Positions 4,652 through 28,030 of a stretch of 64,000 bases of DNA are shown in pieces. The first letter of the stretch is position 1. Every line of letters begins with the position of its first letter. Both the position numbers and the translations under genes were made by a program. Source of the stretch: Candidatus Shapirobacteria bacterium (GTDB lineage Bacteria > Patescibacteriota > Microgenomatia > UBA12405 > BS750m-G30); contig JBDRHA010000011.1 in the NCBI GenBank assembly GCA_043817235.1, positions 35,223 through 99,222 on the forward strand, given 5' to 3'. The notes beneath the pieces were generated by a model that worked only from the letters and a program-made list of their open reading frames with translations, had not been told where the DNA came from and searched no databases.

Positions 4652-6348
4652 TTAACTATTTTACCACCTTTTTTGGCACAAGGCCGCAAGTCTTTAACCT
4701 TAAGAACTATTTTTACCTTCCCGGTAAAACAATCTTCGCTAAGTGAAGCGGCTAAGTCAACCAGCTCGCCCGCTTTTAGCTCGCCATAATACTTGCCCAA
4801 GTTAAAACCAATTGCCTCAGCCCATATTTTTTCTTCTGGAAGTGTTTGCGGATCATCTAAAGCCATTTTTAAGTGATCAGCGCTGCGGCCTACTTGCCTA
4901 AGCTCAGTTAGCCTCAGGCCCTCAAAAAGAAATAGCGGCTCAGGGTTGCCCAAGCCAAAAGGTGCAAGCTTGATAATCTGCTGATAGTATTCCGGATTCA
5001 CCTGGCTTAAGCTTAATTTCGCTTCCAGCTCAATTTTCGGCTCCAGCCCTTTTTTGGGCAGATGCTCTTTAATAAGTCTTTTAAGTTTCTTCTTCAAAAT
5101 AGGAATATTTTTAGTTTTTATTTCAAATCCGGCGGCTAGAGCATGCCCTCCTAAGCCGACAAATATATTTTCTATCTCTCGCAAGACTTTAATAATATTA
5201 AGTCCCTCAACTGACCGGGCTGAGCCACGGCTGACTTTTTCCTCTTTGCTGATAATTACCGCTGGTCGATAAAACTCGTCTTTTAGCTTGCTAGCAATTA
5301 ATCCGACAATGCCCGGATGAAAGGACGAAGAGGCACTAAAAATAAAACCAGAAGGCTTTTCCTGATCAAGATCCTTTTTAGCTATTTCTATCCCCTTTGC
5401 AGTAAGGCTCTTTCTTTCGCTGTTTATTTCCTCAGCCATTTTGGCAAGCTTGTTCCCCTTAATGGCGGTTTGGCTGCAAAGCAAGCGTAAGCCATCTAGG
5501 GGGTTGGCAATCCGGCCCAAGGCATTTAGCCGGGGAGCAACAAGAAAACCAATTTTATAAATATCTAAGGTTTTGTTATCAATTCCCGCTTCACAAAAGA
5601 GGCGGCGCAAACCCACTCTGCTAGTATTTTCTAAATAAGGAATCCCCTGCTTGATTAAGATTCTGTTTATGCCTCGAACTTCCATCATATCCGCTACCGT
5701 TCCCAAAGCCGCTAAACCTAGGTCCGGCAGTTCCGCTCCCAGCTCTTGCAGTTCTCGGGCCAAAAAATAGGCTACCCCGCTGCCGGAAAGCCCAGTAGCG
5801 TGAATGATGGCCAAGGCCTTAGGTAAAGTTTTTTGGGGCAAGTGATGATCGGTAACAATCACCTCAATTCCTGCTTCCTTAAGCTTTTTTATTTGCTCAT
5901 GCTCAACAATGCCATTGTCAACCGTAATTACTAAGCTCAAATTTGGGAAATTTCTTTTTAGTTTTTTCACTCTGCCGGCCTTAAGACCATAGCCATCATC
6001 TTGGCGACTGGGGATATAGGGGATCGCCTGAGCTCTTGCTTGGTGCAAAGCCTCCCAAACAAGAGCGGTAGCGCAAAAACCGTCAACATCATAGTCCCCA
6101 TAAACCAAAATCGTTTCTTTATCTGCTACTGCTTTTTTAATTCTCTTTAGAGCTTTGACTGTTTCCTTTTTATTAATACCCGCTTTGCTTAGGTCAACTT
6201 GGGAAATATTTACCGGATTGAGAAAAGATTTTACTCCCAGGGCAGTTTTAACTCCCCTGTTCCAAAGAAGAGCCAAAAGTAATTTTTCAGGAGTAAGTTT
6301 CTTTTTTAATACCGGGTTTTTCTTTTTTAACCGCCAAGAGGAATTCAT
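4648..6348 (-). CDS. recJ: single-stranded-DNA-specific exonuclease RecJ
   Basis: DHH family motifs VYGDYDVDGFCATA and VTDHHLP, and a DHHA1-like C-terminus. Confidence 0.85.
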   Translation of the reverse strand: MNSSWRLKKKNPVLKKKLTPEKLLLALLWNRGVKTALGVKSFLNPVNISQVDLSKAGINKKETVKALKRIKKAVADKETILVYGDYDVDGFCATALVWEALHQARAQAIPYIPSRQDDGYGLKAGRVKKLKRNFPNLSLVITVDNGIVEHEQIKKLKEAGIEVIVTDHHLPQKTLPKALAIIHATGLSGSGVAYFLARELQELGAELPDLGLAALGTVADMMEVRGINRILIKQGIPYLENTSRVGLRRLFCEAGIDNKTLDIYKIGFLVAPRLNALGRIANPLDGLRLLCSQTAIKGNKLAKMAEEINSERKSLTAKGIEIAKKDLDQEKPSGFIFSASSSFHPGIVGLIASKLKDEFYRPAVIISKEEKVSRGSARSVEGLNIIKVLREIENIFVGLGGHALAAGFEIKTKNIPILKKKLKRLIKEHLPKKGLEPKIELEAKLSLSQVNPEYYQQIIKLAPFGLGNPEPLFLFEGLRLTELRQVGRSADHLKMALDDPQTLPEEKIWAEAIGFNLGKYYGELKAGELVDLAASLSEDCFTGKVKIVLKVKDLRPCAKKGGKIVK

Positions 6349-6374
6349 GCTAGTATTGTATAATATTAGCGCTT

Positions 6375-7769
6375 ATGATGAAAACAAATATGCCCCGGGC
6401 TATTTTAAAAGCAATCAAAAAATTCCAAAATAAGAATTTTGAAATCTATCTAGTCGGCGGGGCCGTAAGGAATTTTATTTTGGACAAAAAGACTAAAGAT
6501 TGGGATCTAACGACTAATGCCCAGCCGGAAGAAATTCAAAAATTATTCCCCAAAAACAGCTTTTATAAAAATAGATATGGCACCGTTACAGTTGTGGTTA
6601 AAGAAAAAGTTAAAAGAATATTACTAGAAATTACTACTTTTCGGAAAGAGTTTGGCTACTCAGACAAAAGACATCCGGACAAAATAATTTGGGGAAAAAC
6701 CCTAAAAGAAGATTTGGCCCGCAGAGAATTCACAGTTTCCGCTATTGCCCTAGAAATAAAAAACATAAACCTCAAAAGCTTTACTTACGAAAACAAAATC
6801 ATTGATCCTTATTACGGACAAAAAGATCTAAAAGACAAAATTTTAAGAACCGTGGGCAACCCGGAAAAAAGGTTTAGCGAAGATGCTTTAAGAATGATGC
6901 GGGCGGTGCGAATTGCTTCTCAGCTGGGCTTAGTTATTGAGAAAAAAACTTTTGTTTCTATTAAGAAAAGTAAAGAGAAAATTAAAAAGATCGCCTGGGA
7001 AAGAATAAGAGATGAGCTTTTTAAGATTCTTGCCTCTTCTTACCCGGCGGAAGGAATATTAGTACTTTATAATACCGGATTATTGTACTTTATCCTTCCG
7101 GAGCTAATTGCCGGCCGAAATGTTGCTCAAGCTAGGCACCACGTGGATGACGTTTGGAACCATTCGCTCAAGTCTCTGCAATTTTGTCCGGCTAAAGATC
7201 CGATAGTTAGACTAGCCTGCCTCCTTCATGATATAGGAAAACCAGCTACCGCCCAAGGCAAAGGCGAAGAAAGAACTTTTTATAATCATGAGGTAGCCGG
7301 AGAAATATTAGCTAGAAAGATTGCCGGAAGACTAAGACTATCCAGAAAAGATCAAGAAAGACTCTGCCGCCTGATAAGATATCATCAGTTTACCCTAGAC
7401 GAGAAACAAACTGATAAGGCCTTTAGAAGATTTATCAAAAAGGTAAAAAAGGAAAATATTAAAGACATGCTTGATTTAAGAATCGGCGACCGGCTAGGTG
7501 GCGGTGCTAGAGAAACTTCTTGGAGACTAGAGTTATTTAAAAAAAGACTAGCCGAAGTTCAAAAACAGCCTTTTTCCTTAAAATACCTAAAAGTTAACGG
7601 CCAAGACGTGATGAGAGTGCTAAAAATACCCCCCGGGCCCAAGGTGGGAAAAATTCTAAAAGCTCTTTTTAAGGAGATAGAAAATGACAAAGAAAAAAAT
7701 GCCAGAAAATATCTTCTTTCTCAAATCAAAAAAATCTATTCCAGACTACCAGTAAAGGAACAGCGATAA
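6375..7769 (+). CDS. cca: CCA-adding tRNA nucleotidyltransferase with HD domain
   Basis: Pol-beta NTase head (LVGGAVRNFIL...DWDL, RREFTVSA) and an HD domain (LLHDIGKP). Confidence 0.8.
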   Translation: MMKTNMPRAILKAIKKFQNKNFEIYLVGGAVRNFILDKKTKDWDLTTNAQPEEIQKLFPKNSFYKNRYGTVTVVVKEKVKRILLEITTFRKEFGYSDKRHPDKIIWGKTLKEDLARREFTVSAIALEIKNINLKSFTYENKIIDPYYGQKDLKDKILRTVGNPEKRFSEDALRMMRAVRIASQLGLVIEKKTFVSIKKSKEKIKKIAWERIRDELFKILASSYPAEGILVLYNTGLLYFILPELIAGRNVAQARHHVDDVWNHSLKSLQFCPAKDPIVRLACLLHDIGKPATAQGKGEERTFYNHEVAGEILARKIAGRLRLSRKDQERLCRLIRYHQFTLDEKQTDKAFRRFIKKVKKENIKDMLDLRIGDRLGGGARETSWRLELFKKRLAEVQKQPFSLKYLKVNGQDVMRVLKIPPGPKVGKILKALFKEIENDKEKNARKYLLSQIKKIYSRLPVKEQR

Positions 7770-8583
7770 AGGTGGAAGAATAAGTCCCCAGGACAGTGCC
7801 GATAAGCAAGGCTAAGGAAAAATAACGAGTAGACTCGCCGCCCAGTAAAAACAGGGAAAGAAGAACAAAAATAATAGTCATTGAGTTGTTAATAGATCGA
7901 ACTAAAGTTTGATTAATAGCCAAGCTTGCAAGTTGATTAAAACCCGCTTTTGGATAGACCCGGCCAAATTCCCGAATTCCATCAAATACGACCACTGTAT
8001 CGTGAACGGAAAAGGCGAGAATTGTCAGAAAAGCCGTCATAAACAAACTATCCACTTCTATCCGAAAAAAACGACCAAGTAGAGAAAAACTTCCCAGCAA
8101 GATCAGACTATCATGGAGCATGGCTAAAATAGCACAAATACCAAATGCCTTATCATTAAACCGAAAGGAAATATAAATTAAAATTCCCAAAATAGCCAAC
8201 CCAATACTAATCAAAGTCTTAGTTAGCAAGCCATGCCCCAAAGAAGCAGATAATGATTCAAAGCGCAGTTCGGCAAAAGATCCAAATTCATTTTCAATCT
8301 CTTTTTGCCAGGTGCTTTTAAGATCTTTGGCGGCCGGACGGGACTTAATAAGCCAAGTTTGCGAACCGGTTTGATTAACCTCCAAAATATCATCCTTTCC
8401 CTTGACAAAACCGATCCAGTCTTCTTTATTGACCTCCTTCTCAAAACCAATCTCCCAGAGATTTCCTCCCTGAAAATCAACCGAAGGCAACAATCCCCAT
8501 TTCAACAAAGAGAAAGTGCTAATAATAAGCAAAAACCCGGAAAAAGAAAAATACAACCAGCTGTGCTTAATAAATCTAATCAT
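7726..8583 (-). CDS. secF: protein-export membrane protein SecF
   Basis: SecF-like 6-TM RND-type domain, immediately downstream of secD. Confidence 0.8.
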   Translation of the reverse strand: MIRFIKHSWLYFSFSGFLLIISTFSLLKWGLLPSVDFQGGNLWEIGFEKEVNKEDWIGFVKGKDDILEVNQTGSQTWLIKSRPAAKDLKSTWQKEIENEFGSFAELRFESLSASLGHGLLTKTLISIGLAILGILIYISFRFNDKAFGICAILAMLHDSLILLGSFSLLGRFFRIEVDSLFMTAFLTILAFSVHDTVVVFDGIREFGRVYPKAGFNQLASLAINQTLVRSINNSMTIIFVLLSLFLLGGESTRYFSLALLIGTVLGTYSSTFIAVPLLVVWNRFF

Positions 8584-18109: not shown

Positions 18110-18787
18110 TTACGCTAAAATTCCTCGCTCGTCAATCAAAGATTTAATTAATTTATAGGAAAAACCTTTTCTTGCCAGGTAGGAAATCAGCTTTTTTCTT
18201 TTTTCCTTTATGTCAGCCAGAGTTTTTAATTTTTTTTCCAGCAGGGATTTTGCCATTTGCTCCTCATCGTAATCGCTCTCGGCCAATGCCCTATCTATTA
18301 AATTTCTGCTTACTCCCCTTCTGGCTAATTCCCCCTTTAACTCTAGAACAGACCGGGGCCGAAATACAAACCGCTGCTCAACCCACCAGCGCGCAAAATT
18401 TAAATCAGAAAGTAAACTCTCATCTTTAAGGTCTTTTATTATTTTTTCTATTATTTTGCCTGTTTTTAGCTGCAAAAAAGCAGGCGCTTTTTTTAAAGTC
18501 GGCTCACTTTTTTTTAGATACTCAAATAGCCGCTGCTTCATTTCTGCTAAAGTGCGGGGGCGGCAAGAGAGAAGCCTTAGGGCCTTAGCTCTTATTCTTT
18601 CTTTAATCTCATCTTGCCAAAACTGAGTCAGCTCCTTTAAAGAAAGCTTTTGGCCAACCGTTAAGCCATAACGAAGTACTAAAAATAAAGAAGCTCCGAG
18701 GGTAAAATCGGAAAAAACTATATTAACTCTATCTTTGCTTCTCTTTTGAGGAGCAATTTTAAGAATTTCCCAGATAGCCATCAGCAA
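18110..18787 (-). CDS. recX: recombination regulator RecX
   Basis: 225-aa helical-repeat protein immediately downstream of recA, the conserved recA-recX arrangement. Confidence 0.55.
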   Translation of the reverse strand: MLMAIWEILKIAPQKRSKDRVNIVFSDFTLGASLFLVLRYGLTVGQKLSLKELTQFWQDEIKERIRAKALRLLSCRPRTLAEMKQRLFEYLKKSEPTLKKAPAFLQLKTGKIIEKIIKDLKDESLLSDLNFARWWVEQRFVFRPRSVLELKGELARRGVSRNLIDRALAESDYDEEQMAKSLLEKKLKTLADIKEKRKKLISYLARKGFSYKLIKSLIDERGILA

Positions 18788-19819
18788 CTAGTCTTTTTTC
18801 TGGACCAAGCTAATTACTTCTTTGGTGACCTTTTCCGTAAATGAGGAGTTTTTTTCCAAGTGGTCTTTGGTTGCCTCCCGTCCCTGGCCTAAGTTTTCTT
18901 TTTTATACTTAAAAAATGACCCGGATTTGGTTATTACATTATATTTTAAAGCCATATCCAAAATACACCCCGATTGAGATACACCACCTACGTTCATAAT
19001 TTCGAATTCGGCATCTTTAAAAGGCGGAGCAACTTTGTTTTTGACTACTCTAGCTCGATGGGTACTGCCAATTACTATCCCCTCGGCATCTTTAATGTTG
19101 CCGGTTTTGCGTAAATCAATGCGCACCGAAGAATAAAACTTTAAAGCCATGCCGCCGGAAGTTGTTTCCGGGTTGCCAAAGAATACGCCTATTTTATGGC
19201 GAATTTGATTGGTAAAAATAACTGCTGTTTTAGACTTAGCAATTGCTCCGGTCAATTTGCGCAGCGCCTGAGACATTAACCTCGCCTGAACACCCACCAT
19301 AGCATCGCCCATTTCTCCTTCAATCTCTGCTCGGGGAACTAAAGCAGCTACTGAATCAACAACTACTAAATCAAGCCCTCCCGAACGAACCAAGGTTTCT
19401 ACAATTTCCAAACCCTGTTCGCCCGTATCCGGCTGGGAAATTAATAAGTCATCAAGCTTGACTCCAATCTGTTCTGCCCGCTGTGGATTTAAAGCGTGCT
19501 CAGCATCCACGAAAGCGGCCACACCTTTCTTTTTTTGCGCCTCGGCAATAACATGCAGACAAACCGTAGTTTTTCCTGAAGCTTCAGGCCCATAAATTTC
19601 CGATACTCGACCGCGGGGAATGCCTCCGACGCCCAAAGCCAAATCTAAAGTCAGACAGCCAGTAGAAATAGCCGGAACATCAACTGCTTTTTGGTCGCCC
19701 AACTTCATAATCGCACCCTTGCCGTACTGTTTTTCAATCTGCTCCATGGCTATTTTAACCGCCTGCAGTTTCTGTTTTTGAATATTACTATTACCCGAAG
19801 ACATAATCAATTTAACCAT
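18788..19819 (-). CDS. recA: recombinase RecA
   Basis: Walker [10 protein letters not shown], and ...[19 protein letters not shown]. Full-length RecA. Confidence 0.9.
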
Positions 19820-19856
19820 ACACTATGTTAAAATACAATAGATATTTAAAGCTAAA

Positions 19857-19871
19857 AACGGAGCGTGGCGC
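19857..19871 (+). repeat. 15-nt direct repeat AACGGAGCGTGGCGC (copy 1), a duplicate of the tRNA-Pro 5' end, followed by a GC-rich hairpin (19872-19911)
   Basis: Identical to 20161-20175. It is followed by CGCGCCCGC...GCGGGCGGG and then AATTGGCAAGC, which resembles the tRNA D-loop AATTGGCTAGC. Confidence 0.7.
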
Positions 19872-19925
19872 CGCGCCCGCTAACGCCTGAGCGTAGCGAT
19901 GGCGGGCGGGTAATTGGCAAGCACT

Positions 19926-20162
19926 ATGTATATTACCTATGTTTTAAAAAGTAAAAAAGATAATAAGTTATACATCGGATACACTAAGAATATAGAAGCA
20001 AGACTAGAAGAACACAATCACGGATTGGTCAATGCAACGAAAAATAGAAGGCCGTTCGAAGTAGTTTATTTCGAAGCATGCAGAAACAAACATAAAGCTT
20101 TACAAAGAGAAAAATATTTTAAAACAGGTTTTGGAAGAAGATTTTTGAAAACAAGAATTTAA
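19926..20162 (+). CDS. small GIY-YIG nuclease family protein (COG2827-like)
   Basis: MYITYVLKSKKDNKLYIGYTKNIEARLEEHNHG is a GIY-YIG/URI domain. Start set at ATG 19926 (the ORF track begins at TTG 19914). Confidence 0.7.
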   Translation: MYITYVLKSKKDNKLYIGYTKNIEARLEEHNHGLVNATKNRRPFEVVYFEACRNKHKALQREKYFKTGFGRRFLKTRI

Positions 20163-20175
20163 CGGAGCGTGGCGC
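20161..20175 (+). repeat. 15-nt direct repeat copy 2 (overlaps the GIY-YIG stop codon and the tRNA-Pro 5' end)
   Basis: Exact match to 19857-19871; the two copies are 304 bp apart. Confidence 0.7.
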
Positions 20176-20236
20176 AATTGGCTAGCGCGTTCGGATGGGG
20201 TCCGAAAGGCTGCGGGTTCAAATCCCGCCGCTCCGA
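20163..20236 (+). tRNA. tRNA-Pro (anticodon GGG), CCA not encoded
   Basis: Hand fold: acceptor CGGAGCG/CGCUCCG with the C1-G72 pair typical of tRNA-Pro; D-stem GCGC/GCGC; anticodon stem UUCGG/CCGAA; loop AUGGGGU (U33, G37); T-arm GCGGG-UUCAAAU-CCCGC; discriminator A. Confidence 0.75.
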
Positions 20237-20263
20237 CACATGTTTTAAGATATATAATAAGTT

Positions 20264-22135
20264 ATGGATCAAACTGAAGGACAACCTAAGTTCGAGATTC
20301 AAGCAGTAATTGAACAAAAACCATTTGCAGCCAGAACCGCAAGGTCTTTTTTTAGCAAATGGTGCGAAATAAATAGCTCTATTCAGCCAGAATTTATTGA
20401 CCGAGAGACGTGGGAAGCAAGAAACCAAGAAGGCATCTTGGAAGAAAGATCGGGCGGAAAACAGGTTCTTTTTATTCCTAAAGATTTACATCTTTGGGAA
20501 ATGATCGGGGTAATGGAAGCCATAGACAACTCTACCTTCGCCGCAAAACTGGAAAGACGAACTGAAGCAAAAGAGAAATTATTAAAGCTTGGAAAAAATT
20601 TTCAAGATGCCGGGGCTTACATTGCCCAACGATTAGGCGGAATTAACGAAGGCAAGGGCATAGCAGAGGCACTTGCTCTGGAATTCTATGGCTATGGACA
20701 GTCTCTAATCTCAGGAAAAAAACCAAAAGATGCTTCTAGTATAGAAGAAATTGCCGCAAGAGAACTCACACCGGAAGAACTAGAGGCAACTGATCGCTTT
20801 CTGACTGGAGAAAGTCTTTATAAATCTCGACAAAAAAGAGCTAAGAACAATCTTGAAAAAGAGCGGCAAAAAACTCTGGCCCAGTTTTTCCGTCTAGCCG
20901 AGAAAGCTTTTACTCTTACCAAGAGAAGCGAACTCCACAAGCCCAGCACAAGGTTAAAACCATGGCAGAGTGACGCACCAATCCATGCTGTATTTCTCGA
21001 AAGAGTGGAAAAAGCAGTAACTCAAAAGATCAAAACTCCCGAAAGAGAGCTCACGGCCGCAGTTTTTCGGCGCGGCCTAGAGAGACTGGCGAGTGAAATG
21101 AGAGAAACCACTGACATGCACGACGAAAGGACCGGAGAAATCACGCCAGGATGGAAAAGAGCTTTAAATAAGTTTCTTGTCAATATTGGGCTTGATCCAA
21201 TCATTGAGCAAAAAAGATTAATGGAAGTGCTCGAGATTCCGAAACTAAGAAACGAATTGAAAGATATCCACCGCTCAGGAGACTCTGTCCAAATAAGCAC
21301 TAAAGAGCGGGAAATTGCTGATAAAATCCAACGAGCAGTATCTGATTTTCCTTATCAAGAGTTTGCAAATAGTCCAGCGAAAATGATCGCTAAAAAATAC
21401 GTCAATTGCGTAGGAGCATCAATGCTGGGAGGCGCTTTAATGAAGGAAGTCGGGTTAAGGTACTTAGTCGCAGATGCGCCCGACCATTCCGTAATCCTTC
21501 TTATAACCAATGACGGAGAAGTTGAATTGCGAGACATGGGAAGGGTTTCAGGAAATGTAAAGTTAAAAGATGAAATGATTAAAAAGCAAAAAGAAGATGG
21601 CAGTCTTCTTGCCGTAAAAGACATTGTGGCCTTCAGCCTTAACCCTTCGCCTAAAGGGTTAAGGTTTGATGTTATCAGCCCGGTTTATCGTATTATTTTC
21701 CCCTGGGTGCAAGCAATTGATCGGCCATATTTGACTGTATTCGGGCCTGAACACGGAGAACAAGCTCAGGTATTAGGAAATACTGCTAACACTTTTTGGT
21801 CCATACTTAATTTCGAAAAAAGCACTGAAGGTTATCGTCGGGTTATAGCAACTGATCCGAATAAAAGTACGGTATATTTTAATTTGGGTCTTGCTTTTTA
21901 CGCTCACAGTCGGGAGAAAGAAGCAATAAAATTTTTTCGGCAAGCATTAGTTATTAATCCCAAGTTTGCAGATGCTTACTATGAACTAGCCCAGGTCTTC
22001 CAATCTTATAAGCGCTATCAGGAAGCAGCTGAAACATACCGGGAATTTATTGGTCTAGCAGATGAAAATAGAGATAAAAGAAAAATAAAAAGAGCTAAGC
22101 GAATGATTGCTAAATTAGCAAAAAGATCTAATTAA
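20264..22135 (+). CDS. hypothetical 623-aa protein: transglutaminase-like Cys-His-Asp core plus C-terminal TPR repeats
   Basis: KYVNCVGASMLGGALMKEVGLRYLVADAPDHSVILLITNDGEVELRD resembles the C...H...D core of transglutaminase-like peptidases (inference). The C-terminal YFNLGLAFYAHSREKEAIKFFRQALVINPKFADAYYELAQVF are TPR repeats. Confidence 0.5.
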   Translation: MDQTEGQPKFEIQAVIEQKPFAARTARSFFSKWCEINSSIQPEFIDRETWEARNQEGILEERSGGKQVLFIPKDLHLWEMIGVMEAIDNSTFAAKLERRTEAKEKLLKLGKNFQDAGAYIAQRLGGINEGKGIAEALALEFYGYGQSLISGKKPKDASSIEEIAARELTPEELEATDRFLTGESLYKSRQKRAKNNLEKERQKTLAQFFRLAEKAFTLTKRSELHKPSTRLKPWQSDAPIHAVFLERVEKAVTQKIKTPERELTAAVFRRGLERLASEMRETTDMHDERTGEITPGWKRALNKFLVNIGLDPIIEQKRLMEVLEIPKLRNELKDIHRSGDSVQISTKEREIADKIQRAVSDFPYQEFANSPAKMIAKKYVNCVGASMLGGALMKEVGLRYLVADAPDHSVILLITNDGEVELRDMGRVSGNVKLKDEMIKKQKEDGSLLAVKDIVAFSLNPSPKGLRFDVISPVYRIIFPWVQAIDRPYLTVFGPEHGEQAQVLGNTANTFWSILNFEKSTEGYRRVIATDPNKSTVYFNLGLAFYAHSREKEAIKFFRQALVINPKFADAYYELAQVFQSYKRYQEAAETYREFIGLADENRDKRKIKRAKRMIAKLAKRSN

Positions 22136-22875
22136 GCCAACTGGATATAGGTAATATTTCTATCCCCAAAATAGGATACTAGAGAATCTTTGTCGTGAGA
22201 AACAGAAGTAAAATCAATCCCAGTACATTTATTCTCAACCAATGCTTGTTTCGCTTTATCGTTTACATAAAACCCAATCGGGTTGACTACGGTTGGAGAA
22301 AAAAACAAATCCAAGTCTTTATATAGTCCCGATTTTATAGCTAAGATTTCCGCCCAAACTTGGGTAACCTCTTTGGTATTCAAACTTTCTTTATCGGCTC
22401 TCATCACTTCTTTTGCCGAATTTAAATTTAATTGTTTTAACTTTTTTTTCGATATTACTTCAATCAGCCAAAATTTAGATTTTTTAAAGTCAATTTGTTT
22501 TAAATGCTCCTTTTGCTCGATAACCTGAAAGGCATTATAGCCGCCAATCTTTTTTCCCCTCTGTTTTAAGATAACCGAATGAATCTGATAAGGTGGTAAT
22601 TTTAAACCTAAAAAAATCTTTAGTAGTTTGTTACTAACAACTAAAACAGAGGGATTAAGAGGCACACAGCTAATAAGATCAGTTAAAGTTGCCCCGTCTA
22701 TTACCTCCAAATAGTTAAAATTTGGCTTAAGGTTAGGAAATTTAATCTGATTAAGTTTATAAACTGAATCAGGTGCGTTTTTATCGTAGTCCGGACTCAT
22801 TTTTCGGCATTGAGGATAGGGAGCCCTGCCAATTCCGGTTAATGAATGCTTTAGCAAATAGATCGCTGACTTCAT
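22132..22875 (-). CDS. hypothetical protein (247 aa)
   Basis: Long ORF with a complex composition, convergent with the TPR gene and overlapping it by 4 nt. No recognisable family. Confidence 0.45.
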   Translation of the reverse strand: MKSAIYLLKHSLTGIGRAPYPQCRKMSPDYDKNAPDSVYKLNQIKFPNLKPNFNYLEVIDGATLTDLISCVPLNPSVLVVSNKLLKIFLGLKLPPYQIHSVILKQRGKKIGGYNAFQVIEQKEHLKQIDFKKSKFWLIEVISKKKLKQLNLNSAKEVMRADKESLNTKEVTQVWAEILAIKSGLYKDLDLFFSPTVVNPIGFYVNDKAKQALVENKCTGIDFTSVSHDKDSLVSYFGDRNITYIQLA

Positions 22876-22927
22876 AGCCTAATTTTCCCAAAACCTAACT
22901 GCCCTTGTCAATTATCAAACTAAAGCT

Positions 22928-22953
22928 TATCTCTTCAGAGATTGCTTTTTCCC
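22928..22953 (+). repeat. copy (a) of the rpsI 3'-end sequence (att-like core)
   Basis: TATCTCTTCAGAGATTGCTTTTTCCC. The minus strand reads GKKQSLKR-stop, against rpsI KKKQSPKR-stop, and matches 28003-28030 at 24 of 28 positions. Confidence 0.65.
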
Positions 22954-22990
22954 TTTTCAAAAAAACTCTGATTTTGATAAAATTAACTGA

Positions 22991-23936
22991 ATGAAAAAAA
23001 TTTTATTAATTGATGCTGACGGCATAGTAATTGAGCCACGCGATAGGTATTTTAGCGAAAAGTTTTCTGAAGAATATAATGTTCCTCTTGAAAAAATTCT
23101 TCCATTTTTTAAAAACGAGTATAAAAAGGCATCTTTAGGAAAGATTGATCTAAGAAAAGCCTTACCGGCTTACCTCAAAAGGTGGGGGCTGGAAAAAAAG
23201 CGTGAATGACTTTCTTGAATACTGGTTTGAGAGTGAAAAGAAAGTAGACAAACAAATAATAAGCCTGGTAGATAATTTAAGAAAAAGAGGCATTAAGTGC
23301 TATCTTGTTTCTGATAACGAAAAAAGAAGAACAGAGTATTTATGGGACAATTTAAATTTAAAAAATCATTTTGATGGTGCTTTTTCCTCCTCTGCCTCAG
23401 GGGTCACAAAATCGGAAAAATCCTTTTTCCAAAAAATATTAACCAAGTTATCAGCGACACCCTCTGAAATAATTTACTGGGACGATGATCTTAAAAACGT
23501 TAAGACTGGAAAAGCAGCAGGGATAGAATCTTATTTTTACAAAGATTTTGGGGAATTTATTAGAAGGTTAGACAAAGTATTACCTAAAGTAATGAAAAAA
23601 GTTATGGCCTTCAATAGTGATGATTTTTATTGCGATCTAGTTTTTAGCAAGAAAATTAAAGTGAAAATTGTTAAAGAAACAAAAGAACTATTAGCTTTTT
23701 ATCATACTCGGCCAAGCTGGTCGACTCATATCGTAATTGTCCCCAAAAAACATATTGCTAAACTTACAGACGTAAAAGACATGAATCTGATTAAAGAAAT
23801 TTTTTCTATTGCTAAAGAAATTATTATCGAAAATGATTGGGATAATAAAAACTTCAAAATAATTTCGAATGGCGGAACTTTTCAAGATTCCGAACATCTT
23901 CATTTTCATCTCGTTTCCGGAAAGAAAATAAGATAG
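22991..23936 (+). CDS. HAD-IA hydrolase fused to a HIT-family hydrolase, split by a frameshift near 23202
   Basis: ORF1 carries HAD motif I (LLIDADGIV). ORF2 carries HAD motifs II-IV (YLVSDN, K, WDDD) and then a HIT domain with the histidine triad HLHFHLV. The two ORFs overlap by 8 nt at GGAAAAAAAGCG. The second frame is open from about 23150, so a 1-nt indel would fuse them. Confidence 0.5.
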
Positions 23937-23963
23937 ATCAGAGGAGATTGCTTTTTCTTTCTA
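23937..23963 (+). repeat. copy (b) of the rpsI 3'-end sequence (att-like core, degenerate)
   Basis: ATCAGAGGAGATTGCTTTTTCTTTC. The minus strand reads KKKQSP.., and GGAGAtTGCTTTTTCTT matches the rpsI end. Confidence 0.55.
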
Positions 23964-23991
23964 TTACTATTAACAATAACTTTTGTTAAAA

Positions 23992-23997
23992 TTGACA
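23992..23997 (+). promoter_or_regulatory. TTGACA -35-like box upstream of the dinD-like gene
   Basis: AATTGACA lies about 30 nt downstream of repeat (b). No canonical -10 at 17-nt spacing. Confidence 0.2.
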
Positions 23998-24043
23998 GGT
24001 GAAAATTACCTAAGCTTTGGAGGAGTTATTTCGAAACGATTTA

Positions 24044-24886
24044 ATGAAAAAATCAAATTCGATCATCTTATTCAAACAGAAAAAAATTCGTCGCACTTGG
24101 GACGAACAAAAGGAACTATGGTATTTCTCGATTGTTGATGTTGTTGGTATATTGACTGGTAGCCCAAGACCACGAAAATACTGGAATGCTCTTAAAACAA
24201 AGCTAAAAGAGGAAGGAAGTGAGTTGCCCCAAAAAGTGGGACAACTGAAATTAAAATCATCTGACGGAAAAAAATATTTTACAGATGTCGCTGTTGTAGA
24301 AACTCTTTTAAGACTGATTCAATCAATTCCATCGCCTAAAGCTGAGCCATTTAAGGTATGACTGGCTAAAGTGGGTTATGAAAGAATTGAAGAGACCGAA
24401 GATCCTGAGCGTGCAATAGATAGAGCGATGAAAACTTATTTGCAAAAAGGATACTCAAAAGAATGGATAAATCAGCGATTAAAAAGCATTGAAGTCAGAA
24501 AAGAACTTACCGATGAATGGCAAGACAGAAAGATGAAAGAGGGACTGGAATGCGCAATATTGACAGATGAAATTACAAAAGCTTGGGCTGACAAAAGCGT
24601 TAGAACTTATAAAAAGTTCAAGGGCCTAAAAAGAGAAAATCTGCGGGATAATATGACAAATTTGGAGTTGATTCTCAATATGCTGGCAGAGGCCCCTACA
24701 ACGGAAATATCTAAAAAGCAACTGCCGAGGGGGCAAAAATAAAAATGATCAGTAGCCCGCAAAGGTGGCTGCGCAGCCAAGAAAGCAAGACTTGAAATTG
24801 AAAAACAAACTGGAGAAAAAGTTGTTAGCCCTAAAAATGCTAAACGTTTACACGGGAAAGAATCAAAGAAATTACCAACAAACTAA
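24044..24886 (+). pseudogene. DNA-damage-inducible protein D (DinD)-like gene with three in-frame stop codons
   Basis: A single frame encodes a DinD-like N-terminus (TWDEQKELWYFSIVDVVGIL...). After TGA at 24359-24361 comes ..YSKEWINQRLKSIEVRKELTDEW..LKGLKRENLRDNMTNLELI..EAPTTEI, and after TAA 24740 and TGA 24746 comes ..ARKGGCAAKKARLEIEKQTGEKVVSPKNAK. There are no frameshifts. ORF-track pieces are 24017..24361 and 24371..24742. Confidence 0.6.
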
Positions 24887-24912
24887 TTTACCTCTTCGGA
24901 GATTTTTTTAAT
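24887..24912 (+). repeat. copy (c) of the rpsI 3'-end sequence (att-like core)
   Basis: AATTTACCTCTTCGGAGATTTTTTTA. TTACCTCTTCGGAGA is identical to the rpsI end, and the minus strand reads ..KSPKR-stop. Confidence 0.6.
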
Positions 24913-24919
24913 AGACTAA

Positions 24920-24948
24920 TTGACAAAATTTTACAGGAAAGATAAACT
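24920..24948 (+). promoter_or_regulatory. sigma70-like promoter TTGACA-N17-TAAACT upstream of the DUF3160-like gene
   Basis: TTGACA at 24920-24925, a 17-nt spacer, TAAACT at 24943-24948, and ATG at 24963. Confidence 0.4.
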
Positions 24949-24962
24949 GGGTTCATACCTCT

Positions 24963-27287
24963 ATGACTATGGAAGATCAAAATTATAATCAGATTGTGCC
25001 GGAAAATCTTCAAACCGCGCCACCCATTGTTCCTAAACCAAAAAACAAGAAAAAGTTTTTTATAGTTTCAGGAATTTTAGGAACTCTAATAATTACTTTT
25101 CTAGCCTTTTACTTGGGGCAGTTAAGCCGGGAAACATTAAAGGAAGCCCCTCAAAACACTAATAATCCAGCTTCTATTTTGACTGCTAATTTCGCTACCT
25201 ATGAAGAAATACCGGTAAACATCAACCCGAAAATCCCGCCTTATTCGGTCAGCCAAGACCTGAGCAATGTTTTAAATGCAGAAGATTTTACTTTTTCTTC
25301 AGAAGTGAAAGATTTATTAGTAAAAAACGCCTTTGCTGTAAGACCAGCTCACAACGACGAGTTTTTCTCGCTTTACGAGTCAAATCGCTATAACTACACA
25401 CCGAATTTCATTACTACTGATTCCATGATCCATAATTACCACTTGATGTTCGATTTCTTGCTAAAACAGCTTGAGGAGCAAAAACTTGCAGATGAGCTAA
25501 AACAGTTAAGCGCGAATATGCTTTCTGAGTCATTAAGTCAACATAGTAGTTTGAAAGGAACAGAATGGGAAAATGCCGCGAAAAGGAATGTCGGATTTTT
25601 CACTGTCGGCAGTAAACTTCTGGACCCATCGCTAGCCGTTCCTTCCCTTGTCACAAATGAGGTAAACCAAGAACTAACTCTTATCGAAGCTCATCAGAAC
25701 ATAGAGAAGTCGCCTGTAATGAGTATTGGCAGCGCCAATAATACTATGATCGATACCCCGCAAGGACTACAATCACTAGAGGCGCTAAAAGAAGATTATT
25801 CCCAATATATACCTCGTGGACATTATGACAAAACAGAACAGCTAAAAGCCTATTTTAAGTCAATGATGTGGTATGGACGTCTAACTTTCAGAATGAAAAA
25901 TGATGATGAAATAAAATCAGCCTTACTTATCACTTTGGCTCTCAGCAAAGAGGACAATCAAAACAGCTGGAATAAGATTTACGAGCCGGTGAATTTCTTT
26001 GTGGGCAAGAGCGATGACATTACGTATTATCAATTAAAGGATTTAGTAGAAAAAGTTTACGGTACGAATGCGACAATTCAATTGGTAGCAAATGATAAAA
26101 ATAAACTTGCCTCTTTCATTGACGAAACTAAAAATTTGGAACCACCGCAAATAAATTCCATACCCATTTTTGAAGCTTCAATCCAAGCCGATAGAGAAAA
26201 AGAAATTAAGGGGTTTCGCTTTATGGGGCAAAGATTCACTATCGATGCTTCTATCTTTCAACGACTAGTTTATCGGGAAGTTGGCGATAAAACTAAATCT
26301 TGTCAAGAATTTAAACCAAACGAAACAGGCTGCCTGCAAGGAGCGCGGTGTCTTCCTAAAGGGCTAGATATCCCTGCGACTCTAGGATCAAACGAGGCTA
26401 AAAATACATTGAAAGGATTAGGTGAAACCAGCTATTCTTGCTACTCGGAAAACATGGCCAAAATGAACGAGTACATTACCAGTCTTAATACAGAGACCTG
26501 GACTCAAAACTTATATTGGGGTTGGCTATATCAACTTCGCCCGCTCCTTGATGAAAAATTGAGCGGTTATCCAAGTTTTATGCAAAACACCGCCTGGCTA
26601 AGAAAAGATCTCAGCGCGTTTTTGGGGAGTTGGACAGAATTGAAGCATGATACCATACTTTACGCAAAACAAGTTTATGCCGAGTTTGGCGGAGGCCTTA
26701 TCGAAGAAAAAGACGATCGCGGTTATGTTGAGCCGAATCCTTTTGTTTACGCGCGTCTTGCTTCACTTCTGAGAATGACAAGCGAAGGACTAGAAATACG
26801 AGGATTATTAACAACAAGCATGAAAGATAATTTAAGCAAATTGGAACAATTAGCAGTGTCGCTCAAAATAATATCGGAAAAAGAATTGAATAATGAAGAA
26901 TTAACTAACGAAGAATACGAGCTTATTCGCTCGTATGGTGGGCAATTAGAGCATTTTTGGCTGGAAGTTAACAAAGATGAAGCAACCTTCAAAGAGTCTA
27001 CCAGTCAAGAAGACTACCTAAACGAGAATCCGGCTGCCATTGTGGCGGATGTTGCTACTGACCCGAATGGAAGAGTACTAGAAGAGGGCACTGGTAATAT
27101 TTTTGAGATCTTTGTCGTAATTCCGATTGATGGTAAATTAAGAATTGCCAAAGGCGGTGTTTATTCCTACTACGAGTTTACTTGGCCTCTCTCAGAGAGA
27201 CTAACTGACAAGAAATGGCGAGAAATAATTGACTCCGACCAAACCCCCCAGCTACCGGAATGGACTAATAATTATATAGCCCAGTAG
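24963..27287 (+). CDS. large membrane-anchored extracytoplasmic protein (DUF3160-like)
   Basis: 774 aa with an N-terminal TM helix and a large domain with conserved Cys pairs. It resembles DUF3160 proteins; family assignment from memory only. Confidence 0.45.
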   Translation: MTMEDQNYNQIVPENLQTAPPIVPKPKNKKKFFIVSGILGTLIITFLAFYLGQLSRETLKEAPQNTNNPASILTANFATYEEIPVNINPKIPPYSVSQDLSNVLNAEDFTFSSEVKDLLVKNAFAVRPAHNDEFFSLYESNRYNYTPNFITTDSMIHNYHLMFDFLLKQLEEQKLADELKQLSANMLSESLSQHSSLKGTEWENAAKRNVGFFTVGSKLLDPSLAVPSLVTNEVNQELTLIEAHQNIEKSPVMSIGSANNTMIDTPQGLQSLEALKEDYSQYIPRGHYDKTEQLKAYFKSMMWYGRLTFRMKNDDEIKSALLITLALSKEDNQNSWNKIYEPVNFFVGKSDDITYYQLKDLVEKVYGTNATIQLVANDKNKLASFIDETKNLEPPQINSIPIFEASIQADREKEIKGFRFMGQRFTIDASIFQRLVYREVGDKTKSCQEFKPNETGCLQGARCLPKGLDIPATLGSNEAKNTLKGLGETSYSCYSENMAKMNEYITSLNTETWTQNLYWGWLYQLRPLLDEKLSGYPSFMQNTAWLRKDLSAFLGSWTELKHDTILYAKQVYAEFGGGLIEEKDDRGYVEPNPFVYARLASLLRMTSEGLEIRGLLTTSMKDNLSKLEQLAVSLKIISEKELNNEELTNEEYELIRSYGGQLEHFWLEVNKDEATFKESTSQEDYLNENPAAIVADVATDPNGRVLEEGTGNIFEIFVVIPIDGKLRIAKGGVYSYYEFTWPLSERLTDKKWREIIDSDQTPQLPEWTNNYIAQ

Positions 27288-27316
27288 ACAAATTTATTAC
27301 CATTACGAAAAGATGG

Positions 27317-27997
27317 ATGCAAAGAAAAATCGCAGGGTCAATTTTATTATCTTTCGTTTTTGTTGCTATCCTTTGGGGTTGTAAGCACTATTACCGAAGG
27401 CATTTTCCCTACTCATCAGTTTATTTTGGCAATAGCATTGCTTCAAAAAAAGAAATGGCTGACCTGGATAATAATTCCAGTCCAGAGACTTATTGTCTTG
27501 AAAACGGACGTCTGACCATCAAGGAAAATACAAAAACTGTTTGGCAATCACCCCTTGAGTGGCAGATAGATGATTTTGTTATTGAAGATTCTAATAACGA
27601 TGGCGTCTTGGATATAAATTTATCTCTTTGGAAACCAGGAAATTTTGGCACATCAAGGCCATTTTGGGTTGAAGAAAACGACATGAGCGTAAAAAATCAT
27701 TTTTTCGTTTTAGATTTTATTAACGGTTCGACAAAACAAATTTGGGGCTCTTCTAGTCTCAGTGAGCCAAATTGCGAATTTCAAATCGCTGATATTGATA
27801 ATGATGGAAAAAATGATTTGATCGTAATCGAAGGAGACTATTCCCAAAAACCAGATTGTAACGGAAATTATCTTGCTGTTTGGAAATGGAACGGCTGGGG
27901 ATTTTCAAATGAGTGGCGAAGTGAAAAAGGAAATTTTTCTCACTTTGAGATTGAAAAAATTGATGAAAAAGAGTACATTATCGCAAATCCGCCATGA
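27317..27997 (+). CDS. secreted/membrane-anchored protein with FG-GAP/calcium-binding-like DxDxDG repeats
   Basis: N-terminal TM/signal; DSNNDGVLDINLSLW and DIDNDGKNDLIVIEGDY motifs. Confidence 0.45.
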   Translation: MQRKIAGSILLSFVFVAILWGCKHYYRRHFPYSSVYFGNSIASKKEMADLDNNSSPETYCLENGRLTIKENTKTVWQSPLEWQIDDFVIEDSNNDGVLDINLSLWKPGNFGTSRPFWVEENDMSVKNHFFVLDFINGSTKQIWGSSSLSEPNCEFQIADIDNDGKNDLIVIEGDYSQKPDCNGNYLAVWKWNGWGFSNEWRSEKGNFSHFEIEKIDEKEYIIANPP

Positions 27998-28002
27998 GAA
28001 AC

Positions 28003-28030
28003 TTACCTCTTCGGAGACTGCTTTTTCTTG
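28003..28030 (+). repeat. copy (d): the authentic rpsI 3' end, reference copy of the repeated core
   Basis: TTACCTCTTCGGAGACTGCTTTTTCTTG encodes ..KKKQSPKR-stop on the minus strand. Confidence 0.65.

Follow-up and report, generated by a model that had tools for sequence, protein, structure and literature searches.

A 64,000-nucleotide stretch of a Candidatus Shapirobacteria genome (GenBank assembly GCA_043817235.1, contig JBDRHA010000011.1, positions 35,223 to 99,222; hereafter the window, meaning the whole stretch that was analysed) carries, at 24044-24886 on the forward strand, a gene that can be followed from its ATG to its native terminator in a single frame and that is interrupted by three in-frame stop codons. 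Our analysis indicates that the gene is simply dead. It belongs to the PADLOC PDC-S13 type, a widespread and normally very conserved family, was acquired horizontally and became a pseudogene fairly recently, with no unusual genetic code involved; we give this reading a probability of roughly 0.9. Pseudogenisation was one of two origins proposed in a first-pass annotation of the sequence, and it agrees with the data in that the stops hit conserved sense residues, the excess of amino acid replacements is significant and the surrounding genome is intact.

The features of the gene are as follows.
24044..24886, + strand: pseudogene, full-length and frame-preserving remnant of a Bro-N + DinD-like-C gene (PADLOC PDC-S13 type), from homology, the PDLC04920 match and DNA alignment
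24086..24358, + strand: Bro-N-encoding region, amino acids 15-105 (Pfam PF02498)
24392..24838, + strand: helical C-terminal module, distant homologue of E. coli DinD, approximately amino acids 117-265 (BLASTP and PADLOC cross-hits)
24359..24361, + strand: stop 1, TGA replacing Trp106; TGG in 4/4 aligned DNA homologues, a single G>A change
24740..24742, + strand: stop 2, TAA at a Glu/Ser/Asn column (E233); GAA/GAG in the four closest DNA homologues, a G>T change
24746..24748, + strand: stop 3, TGA replacing the near-invariant Lys235; AAA/AAG in homologues, two nucleotide changes
24734..24748, + strand: scrambled patch, five altered codons in a row including stops 2 and 3, reading Q-K-stop-K-stop against the family's L-E-E/S/N-N-K
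24884..24886, + strand: native terminator TAA; 4/4 aligned homologues end in TAA too
24885..24909, + strand: terminator-like motif ACCTCTTCGGAGA with a T-run, belonging to repeat families D1/D3 and found also at the 3' ends of neighbours (22924, 28000)

A single reading frame runs through three stop codons

The frame comprises 281 codons, which translation table 11 cuts into the open reading frames (ORFs) 24017-24361 and 24371-24742. When the best intact homologue, P0001, was compared with the window by tblastn, a single high-scoring segment pair was obtained, which spans residues 1-280 with 85.7% identity (E 9e-155) and passes through all three stops. Four intact homologues align with the frame at the DNA level without a gap up to codon 278, and hundreds of intact homologues of ~283 amino acids (~79-86% amino acid identity) likewise align without gaps. 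The similarity is therefore far above chance and the gene contains no internal insertion or deletion (indel), as the first-pass annotation had described. A protein search with the conceptual translation gave more than 8000 matches; among the best 120, which were examined, nearly all are approximately 283 amino acids long, with 95-100% query coverage and 77-86% amino acid identity. Intact homologues run past stop 1. Their TAA terminators lie three codons beyond that of the pseudogene, or six in one of the four aligned.

The stops replace conserved sense residues and fit no single reassignment

Comparison with homologues identifies the residues lost at the three sites as conserved sense residues: tryptophan in 200 of 200 homologues at the column of stop 1, the Glu/Ser/Asn column at stop 2 and, at stop 3, lysine in 175 and arginine in 17 of 199 homologues. 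The patch that holds stops 2 and 3 reads AAAAAT-AAAAAT and is the densest 15-nucleotide run of mismatches in the gene, with 9/15 positions differing from homologue P0002 (permutation p 0.036); against P0001 the same patch shows 8/15 mismatches (permutation p 0.26). This clustering is suggestive only, and a single complex event may have produced both stops 2 and 3. For these two stops we also considered two frameshifts that compensate each other and a 6-nucleotide tandem duplication (AAAAAT-AAAAAT); either is possible, but they were set aside because substitutions explain the stops at least as parsimoniously and the clustering is of marginal significance only.

The second origin proposed in the first-pass annotation was a donor, such as a phage, with reassigned stop codons. 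More broadly, TGA and/or TAA could be sense codons in the donor or in the host, as in a stop-recoded phage or under code 4 or code 25. The TGA at a tryptophan position does fit code 4, and a TGA at 5719-5721 of locus L020, in a Candidatus Peribacteria metagenome-assembled genome (MAG), occupies the invariant Gly111 column of an otherwise intact homologue and fits code 25. We consider the L020 codon more probably a genuine case of code 25 (TGA = Gly) in that host, which indicates that recoded hosts of this family do exist. In the window copy, however, no single reassignment can account for the three stops, since this would demand two meanings for TGA, Trp and Lys, as well as a reading of TAA as Glu. 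Moreover, the gene closes with a normal TAA, its six other tryptophans are encoded by TGG, and the closest homologues have sense codons at the stop sites. The host itself terminates genes with all three stop codons (TAA 39, TGA 18 and TAG 5 times in the window), coding density under table 11 is 95%, and long genes such as rpoB, rpoC, the ribosomal operon and recA are intact under that table. No suppressor tRNA was found within the 64-kb window, in which tRNA-Pro(GGG) is the only tRNA. The family is also nearly absent from phages, occurring in 4 of 50,697 phage genome records, all of them short unannotated fecal contigs. Recoding is thus extremely improbable. Other genes of the window do not show the same in-frame stops, the sole other broken gene being the adjacent upstream neighbour.

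Constraint is relaxed over the entire gene

The window copy has accumulated amino acid changes well beyond those of its close relatives. At the 193 columns that are at least 95% conserved among 120 close homologues it deviates 13 times, whereas the homologues themselves do so 2.1 times on average and never more than 9 times. Codons private to the window copy in the alignment with four intact DNA homologues comprise 30 replacement and 36 silent changes, as opposed to 6/26, 8/30, 9/32 and 12/52 in the intact copies (pooled 35/140; Fisher p=1.5e-4). The window copy carries approximately 20 extra amino acid changes. At the nucleotide level, 53 changes are private to the window copy against 19-27 in the intact copies, and 53% of them fall at codon positions 1-2 compared with 32% for the pooled intact copies. 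Nonsynonymous (dN) and synonymous (dS) divergence was estimated by the Nei-Gojobori method (NG86). Pairs of intact copies gave dN values of 0.037-0.057 and dS values of 0.7-1.45 (omega, that is dN/dS, ~0.04-0.06), values which place the family under very strong purifying selection; in pairs that include the window copy dN is approximately doubled, at 0.071-0.091. The excess dN amounts to 0.044 before stop 1, in the Bro-N part, and 0.041 after it, and this equality on the two sides argues that the whole gene is decaying, not just the part downstream of the stop. Constraint is relaxed over the entire gene.

The even distribution of the excess bears on the possibility that part of the gene has been salvaged, either because the ORF 24044-24361, encoding a 105-amino-acid Bro-N protein, is still expressed as a DNA-binding or regulatory protein while the effector half decays, or because stop 1 is partly read through by tRNA-Trp, which would restore the original Trp; a truncated product might also be combined with low-level read-through. 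The Pfam Bro-N match (amino acids 15-105) ends exactly at stop 1, the N-terminal 109 residues alone also match a second PADLOC candidate, PDC-S04, and a Trp codon turned into TGA is the classic setting for near-cognate read-through. The Bro-N part, however, carries the same excess dN as the remainder, and its near-invariant sites have been altered (S62P, D84V, T85V and E71K, seen in 0-2 of 200 homologues). A consensus scan of the upstream + strand found no sigma-70-like promoter, which is weak evidence, and a ribosome that reads through stop 1 would still meet the TAA at 24740. We therefore regard salvage as improbable.

The same substitution data speak to a technical origin, namely that the true gene is intact and that the stops are sequencing errors or the product of a chimeric MAG consensus. 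The source is a MAG, an A7 homopolymer, a typical error site, marks the split in the adjacent HAD/HIT gene, and no second assembly of the strain was found in exact look-ups of the window proteins. Metagenome pattern scans gave no matches either, neither with an N at stop 1 nor with a degenerate pattern for the private Gly35/Gly39 pair, the latter returning 0 matches in 241 million metagenome records. This second result shows that the private residues are confined to the window copy and in that respect favours the pseudogene reading. On the other hand, three stops and approximately 20 private replacements would all have to fall in one 843-base-pair gene while the other ~60 kb is cleanly coding. 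Substitution errors would show no preference for codon positions 1-2, the changes are not located at homopolymers, and a raised dN with a normal dS is an evolutionary pattern, not a technical one. An artefact is accordingly very improbable.

Three stops and no indel are compatible with neutral decay

The first-pass annotation had considered three nonsense codons without a frameshift unusual. This gene is Lys/Glu-rich and A-rich and hence prone to stops, with 6.7% of random single-base changes creating one. The excess dN translates into approximately 29 neutral substitutions, for which about 2.0 stops are expected and three or more have a probability of 0.32; with stops 2 and 3 perhaps due to one event, the number of stops loses its strangeness. 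The annotation had further attributed the stops to AT-biased mutation of CAA, CGA or TGG codons. Only stop 1 (TGG>TGA) has such an origin, stop 2 being a GAA>TAA transversion and stop 3 requiring two changes. Nor does the mutation spectrum show the proposed bias: among the 53 private changes, AT>GC substitutions outnumber GC>AT substitutions (28 vs 17), and the guanine-plus-cytosine (GC) content of the window copy, 0.375, is slightly above the 0.35-0.36 of its homologues.

Several observations weigh against a recently dead gene. Assuming indel:substitution ratios of 0.05, 0.1 and 0.15, a range taken from general bacterial mutation spectra, the probability that no indel has occurred is 0.23, 0.05 and 0.01, respectively, which makes the zero count mildly lucky without amounting to an anomaly. 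When 200 diverse homologues are used as reference, the window copy has 18 rare residues, within the range of divergent intact copies (maximum 28). As this count does not discriminate, the argument for relaxed constraint is carried by the close relatives together with the replacement/silent and codon-based tests. Synonymous sites are near saturation (dS ~1-1.5), rendering branch-specific omega imprecise, and the stops, as read from the assembly, could be single-base assembly errors. With these points taken into account, a fairly recent pseudogene remains the reading we favour.

The gene combines a Bro-N domain with a DinD-type C-terminal module

Bro-N is the sole Pfam domain found in the gene. 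Its match to the window copy is marginal, as for a decayed copy (PF02498, E 1.7e-5, 25.7 bits vs a cut-off of 25.6), and the domain is present in the precomputed annotation of 120 of 120 listed intact homologues. The gene had initially been described as DinD-like, a designation that holds for one half of the protein. BLASTP aligns P0001 with E. coli DinD only over amino acids 117-264, at 25% identity (E 9e-5). The NCBIfam DinD equivalog model NF008573 (cut-off 242 bits), which scores E. coli DinD at 488 bits, gives no match to the window copy at E<=0.01 and none to P0001 at E<=1. As judged from these comparisons, the family is not a DinD equivalog, and "DinD-like" is true of its C-terminal half and fails over the full length.

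The closest profile is PADLOC PDLC04920 (PDC-S13), which the window copy matches over residues 1-275 of a 286-position model (E 4e-124) and P0001 from end to end (E 8e-134). E. coli DinD falls under the model PDLC04919, with a cross-hit to PDLC04920 at residues 122-250 (E 2.2e-16); conversely, P0001 cross-hits PDLC04919 over residues 138-277. The best PHROG match is phrog_15286, of unknown function (E 7e-119), with weak matches to the 'anti-repressor Ant' and 'transcriptional regulator' families. An AlphaFold2 model of P0001, built from a shallow alignment of 57 sequences, has a mean predicted local distance difference test (pLDDT) score of 48.5, too low for a meaningful fold search, and a profile search of solved structures gave insignificant matches only (E ~0.05 to TcdB). 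In its ancestral form the protein probably coupled DNA binding by Bro-N to a DinD-type effector module, with a role in defence or in the modulation of recombination.

Relation to described systems

The window copy resembles PDC-S13 in its essentially full-length match to PDLC04920. PDC-S13 is a single-gene unit whose intact copies often stand beside restriction-modification (RM), RadC and RhuM genes; the window copy differs in being broken by three stops and in lying away from RM genes. With its three in-frame stops the window copy is also not an intact ORF able to give a product. A literature search for experimental work on PDC-S13 found no paper, and PDC-S13 stands as a bioinformatic phage-defence candidate.

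E. coli DinD (PcsA), a protein of the SOS response, is described as inhibiting post-synaptic RecA filaments (Uranga et al. 2011, PMC3190988, cited through PMC10602874). It has in common with the present family the helical C-terminal module (amino acids 117-264) and belongs to the sister PDC-S13 model PDLC04919, whereas its N-terminus is unrelated to the Bro-N domain found here and the model NF008573 does not match the family. With Bro-N proteins (PF02498), such as baculovirus BRO and phage Ant-type anti-repressors, the family shares the N-terminal 15-105 region; unlike them it is overwhelmingly chromosomal, and its C-terminal module is DinD-like rather than KilA-C or Ant-C. Finally, the window copy shows the traits of ordinary pseudogenes of acquired or defence-island genes, namely nonsense mutations, a raised replacement/silent ratio, a location in a lineage-specific insert and recurrent inactivation. 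It differs from them in nothing essential, the absence of an indel being only a slightly uncommon trait.

Horizontal acquisition and spread of the family

Divergence between the window copy and its homologue at locus L002 was compared with that of other genes in the same genome pair. The Bro-N gene has a dS of 1.49 and uses identical codons at 60% of identical residues, as against a dS of 2.8 for recA, saturation for recX and rny, and 36-43% identical codons in these genes. The lower divergence of the Bro-N gene leads us to conclude that it was horizontally acquired. Nucleotide homology to the other loci (87 of 87) starts at the ATG or a few bases before it and stops at the stop codon. A conserved leader of approximately 35 nucleotides (TGCTGATTTAA.TTATAACTA.A) stands upstream of the closest copies, L001, L002, L086 and L087. 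The phyla with members at 60-77% identity include Proteobacteria, Bacteroidota, Planctomycetota and Cloacimonadota, and no integrase, transposase or repeat was consistently found near the family loci (L001-L088). One Cloacimonadota chromosome, L013, has two intact copies in tandem, at 6001-6810 and 7270-8079.

As to gene neighbourhood, the closest intact copies are found in a cassette of the order RadC, Dam methyltransferase, Bro-N gene, PLD nuclease and methyltransferase, and in L002 and L004 the gene lies just 3' of recA and tRNA-Pro(GGG), with a type IIG RM system, RhuM and HsdS next to it. Across the family, the neighbours counted (74 upstream, 65 downstream) are mainly unrelated housekeeping genes with some enrichment of RM genes, and from these 139 neighbours we take a solitary context to be normal. 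Loss of an RM cassette was considered as a cause of decay and rejected, as most copies are solitary and the flanks of the window copy hold no remnants of a cassette.

The pseudogene lies in a variable region between recA and rpsI

The region around the pseudogene is a lineage-specific insert.
19820..28002, no strand assigned: lineage-specific variable region ('island') of 8.2 kb between recA and rpsI, delimited by relatives without the insert

In three close relatives, L089, L091 and L092, whose RecA is 78-81% identical to that of the window, the gap between rpsI and recA measures 64-700 nucleotides rather than 8.2 kb, and orthology of the S9 protein was confirmed at 70% identity. The pseudogene does, then, sit in an island that these relatives lack, in agreement with its first description. 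Besides the pseudogene, the insert contains a GIY-YIG-like ORF, tRNA-Pro(GGG), a TPR protein, a hypothetical protein, a split HAD/HIT gene, a DUF3160 protein and an FG-GAP protein. GC content drops to 0.32-0.37 at 22-25 kb, around the pseudogene. At the island borders, neither convincing att-like flanking repeats nor a direct repeat of the tRNA-Pro 3' end was found.

The upstream neighbour (22991-23936, +) encodes a fusion of a HAD hydrolase and HIT that is split into two overlapping ORFs, 22991-23209 with HAD motif I (DxDG) and 23202-23936 with the remaining HAD sequence and HIT, through a frameshift located at the A7 run 23192-23198 or close to it; it is either a second island pseudogene or a homopolymer sequencing error. 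Several island genes, the pseudogene among them, share a terminator-like motif, ACCTCTTCGGAGA(C/T)TGCTTTTT, at their 3' ends (22924-22953, 23943-23959, 24885-24909 and 28000-28029). Near the recA end, a 12-nucleotide exact copy of the tRNA-Pro(GGG) 5' end, GGAGCGTGGCGC, occurs at 19860, ahead of a GC-rich stretch, and next in order the small GIY-YIG-like ORF (~19927-20163) abuts the real tRNA-Pro (20163-20237). To judge from its layout, the segment 19860-20237 looks like a partial tRNA duplication tied to the GIY-YIG nuclease gene.

The order recX, recA, tRNA-Pro(GGG) and, further on, the Bro-N gene is common to the window (18110-19819 and 20163-24886), L002 (5589-8852) and L004 (303-3566), the latter two belonging to Patescibacteria whose RecA is only 60% identical to that of the window. 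This shared arrangement is curious given the link between DinD and RecA; a tRNA-linked insertion hot spot alone may explain it, and proximity to recA is not evidence of SOS/LexA regulation.

Recurrent inactivation and a proposed history

Broken copies recur elsewhere in the family. Among ~86 other loci, single internal nonsense codons were found in L040 (TAA at L195), L048 (TAA at E216), L058 (TAG at E71) and L077 (TAG at L209), while L027 is frameshifted and L078 truncated. Approximately 7% of the sampled copies have thus been broken, independently and in unrelated genomes.

In order to rationalise the present state of the window copy, we propose that a stand-alone gene encoding Bro-N and a DinD-like C-terminal half was acquired horizontally and then inactivated in this Candidatus Shapirobacteria lineage. 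Neutral evolution since inactivation, amounting to ~3-4% divergence, would have yielded approximately 20 extra replacements, one TGG>TGA change and a small cluster creating TAA and TGA six bases apart, the gene having so far escaped indels by chance. We infer the order of these events, and with it the loss of expression as a functional protein, from the pattern of changes in the sequence.

Taken alone, this gene matters little, beyond being a clean case of a gene that died recently within a small Patescibacteria genome and illustrating that several in-frame stops without a frameshift do not call for an exotic genetic code. It also serves as a warning for annotation, "DinD" being a loose label for the Bro-N + DinD-C family. 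Together with the independently broken copies, it marks the candidate defence gene PDC-S13 as dispensable and often lost, as expected of defence-island cargo. The more interesting lead is the intact family, which is extremely conserved, has a dN/dS of ~0.04-0.06 and 60-86% amino acid identity across phyla, appears to move as a bare ORF without common flanks and has, at this stage, a candidate role in defence only.

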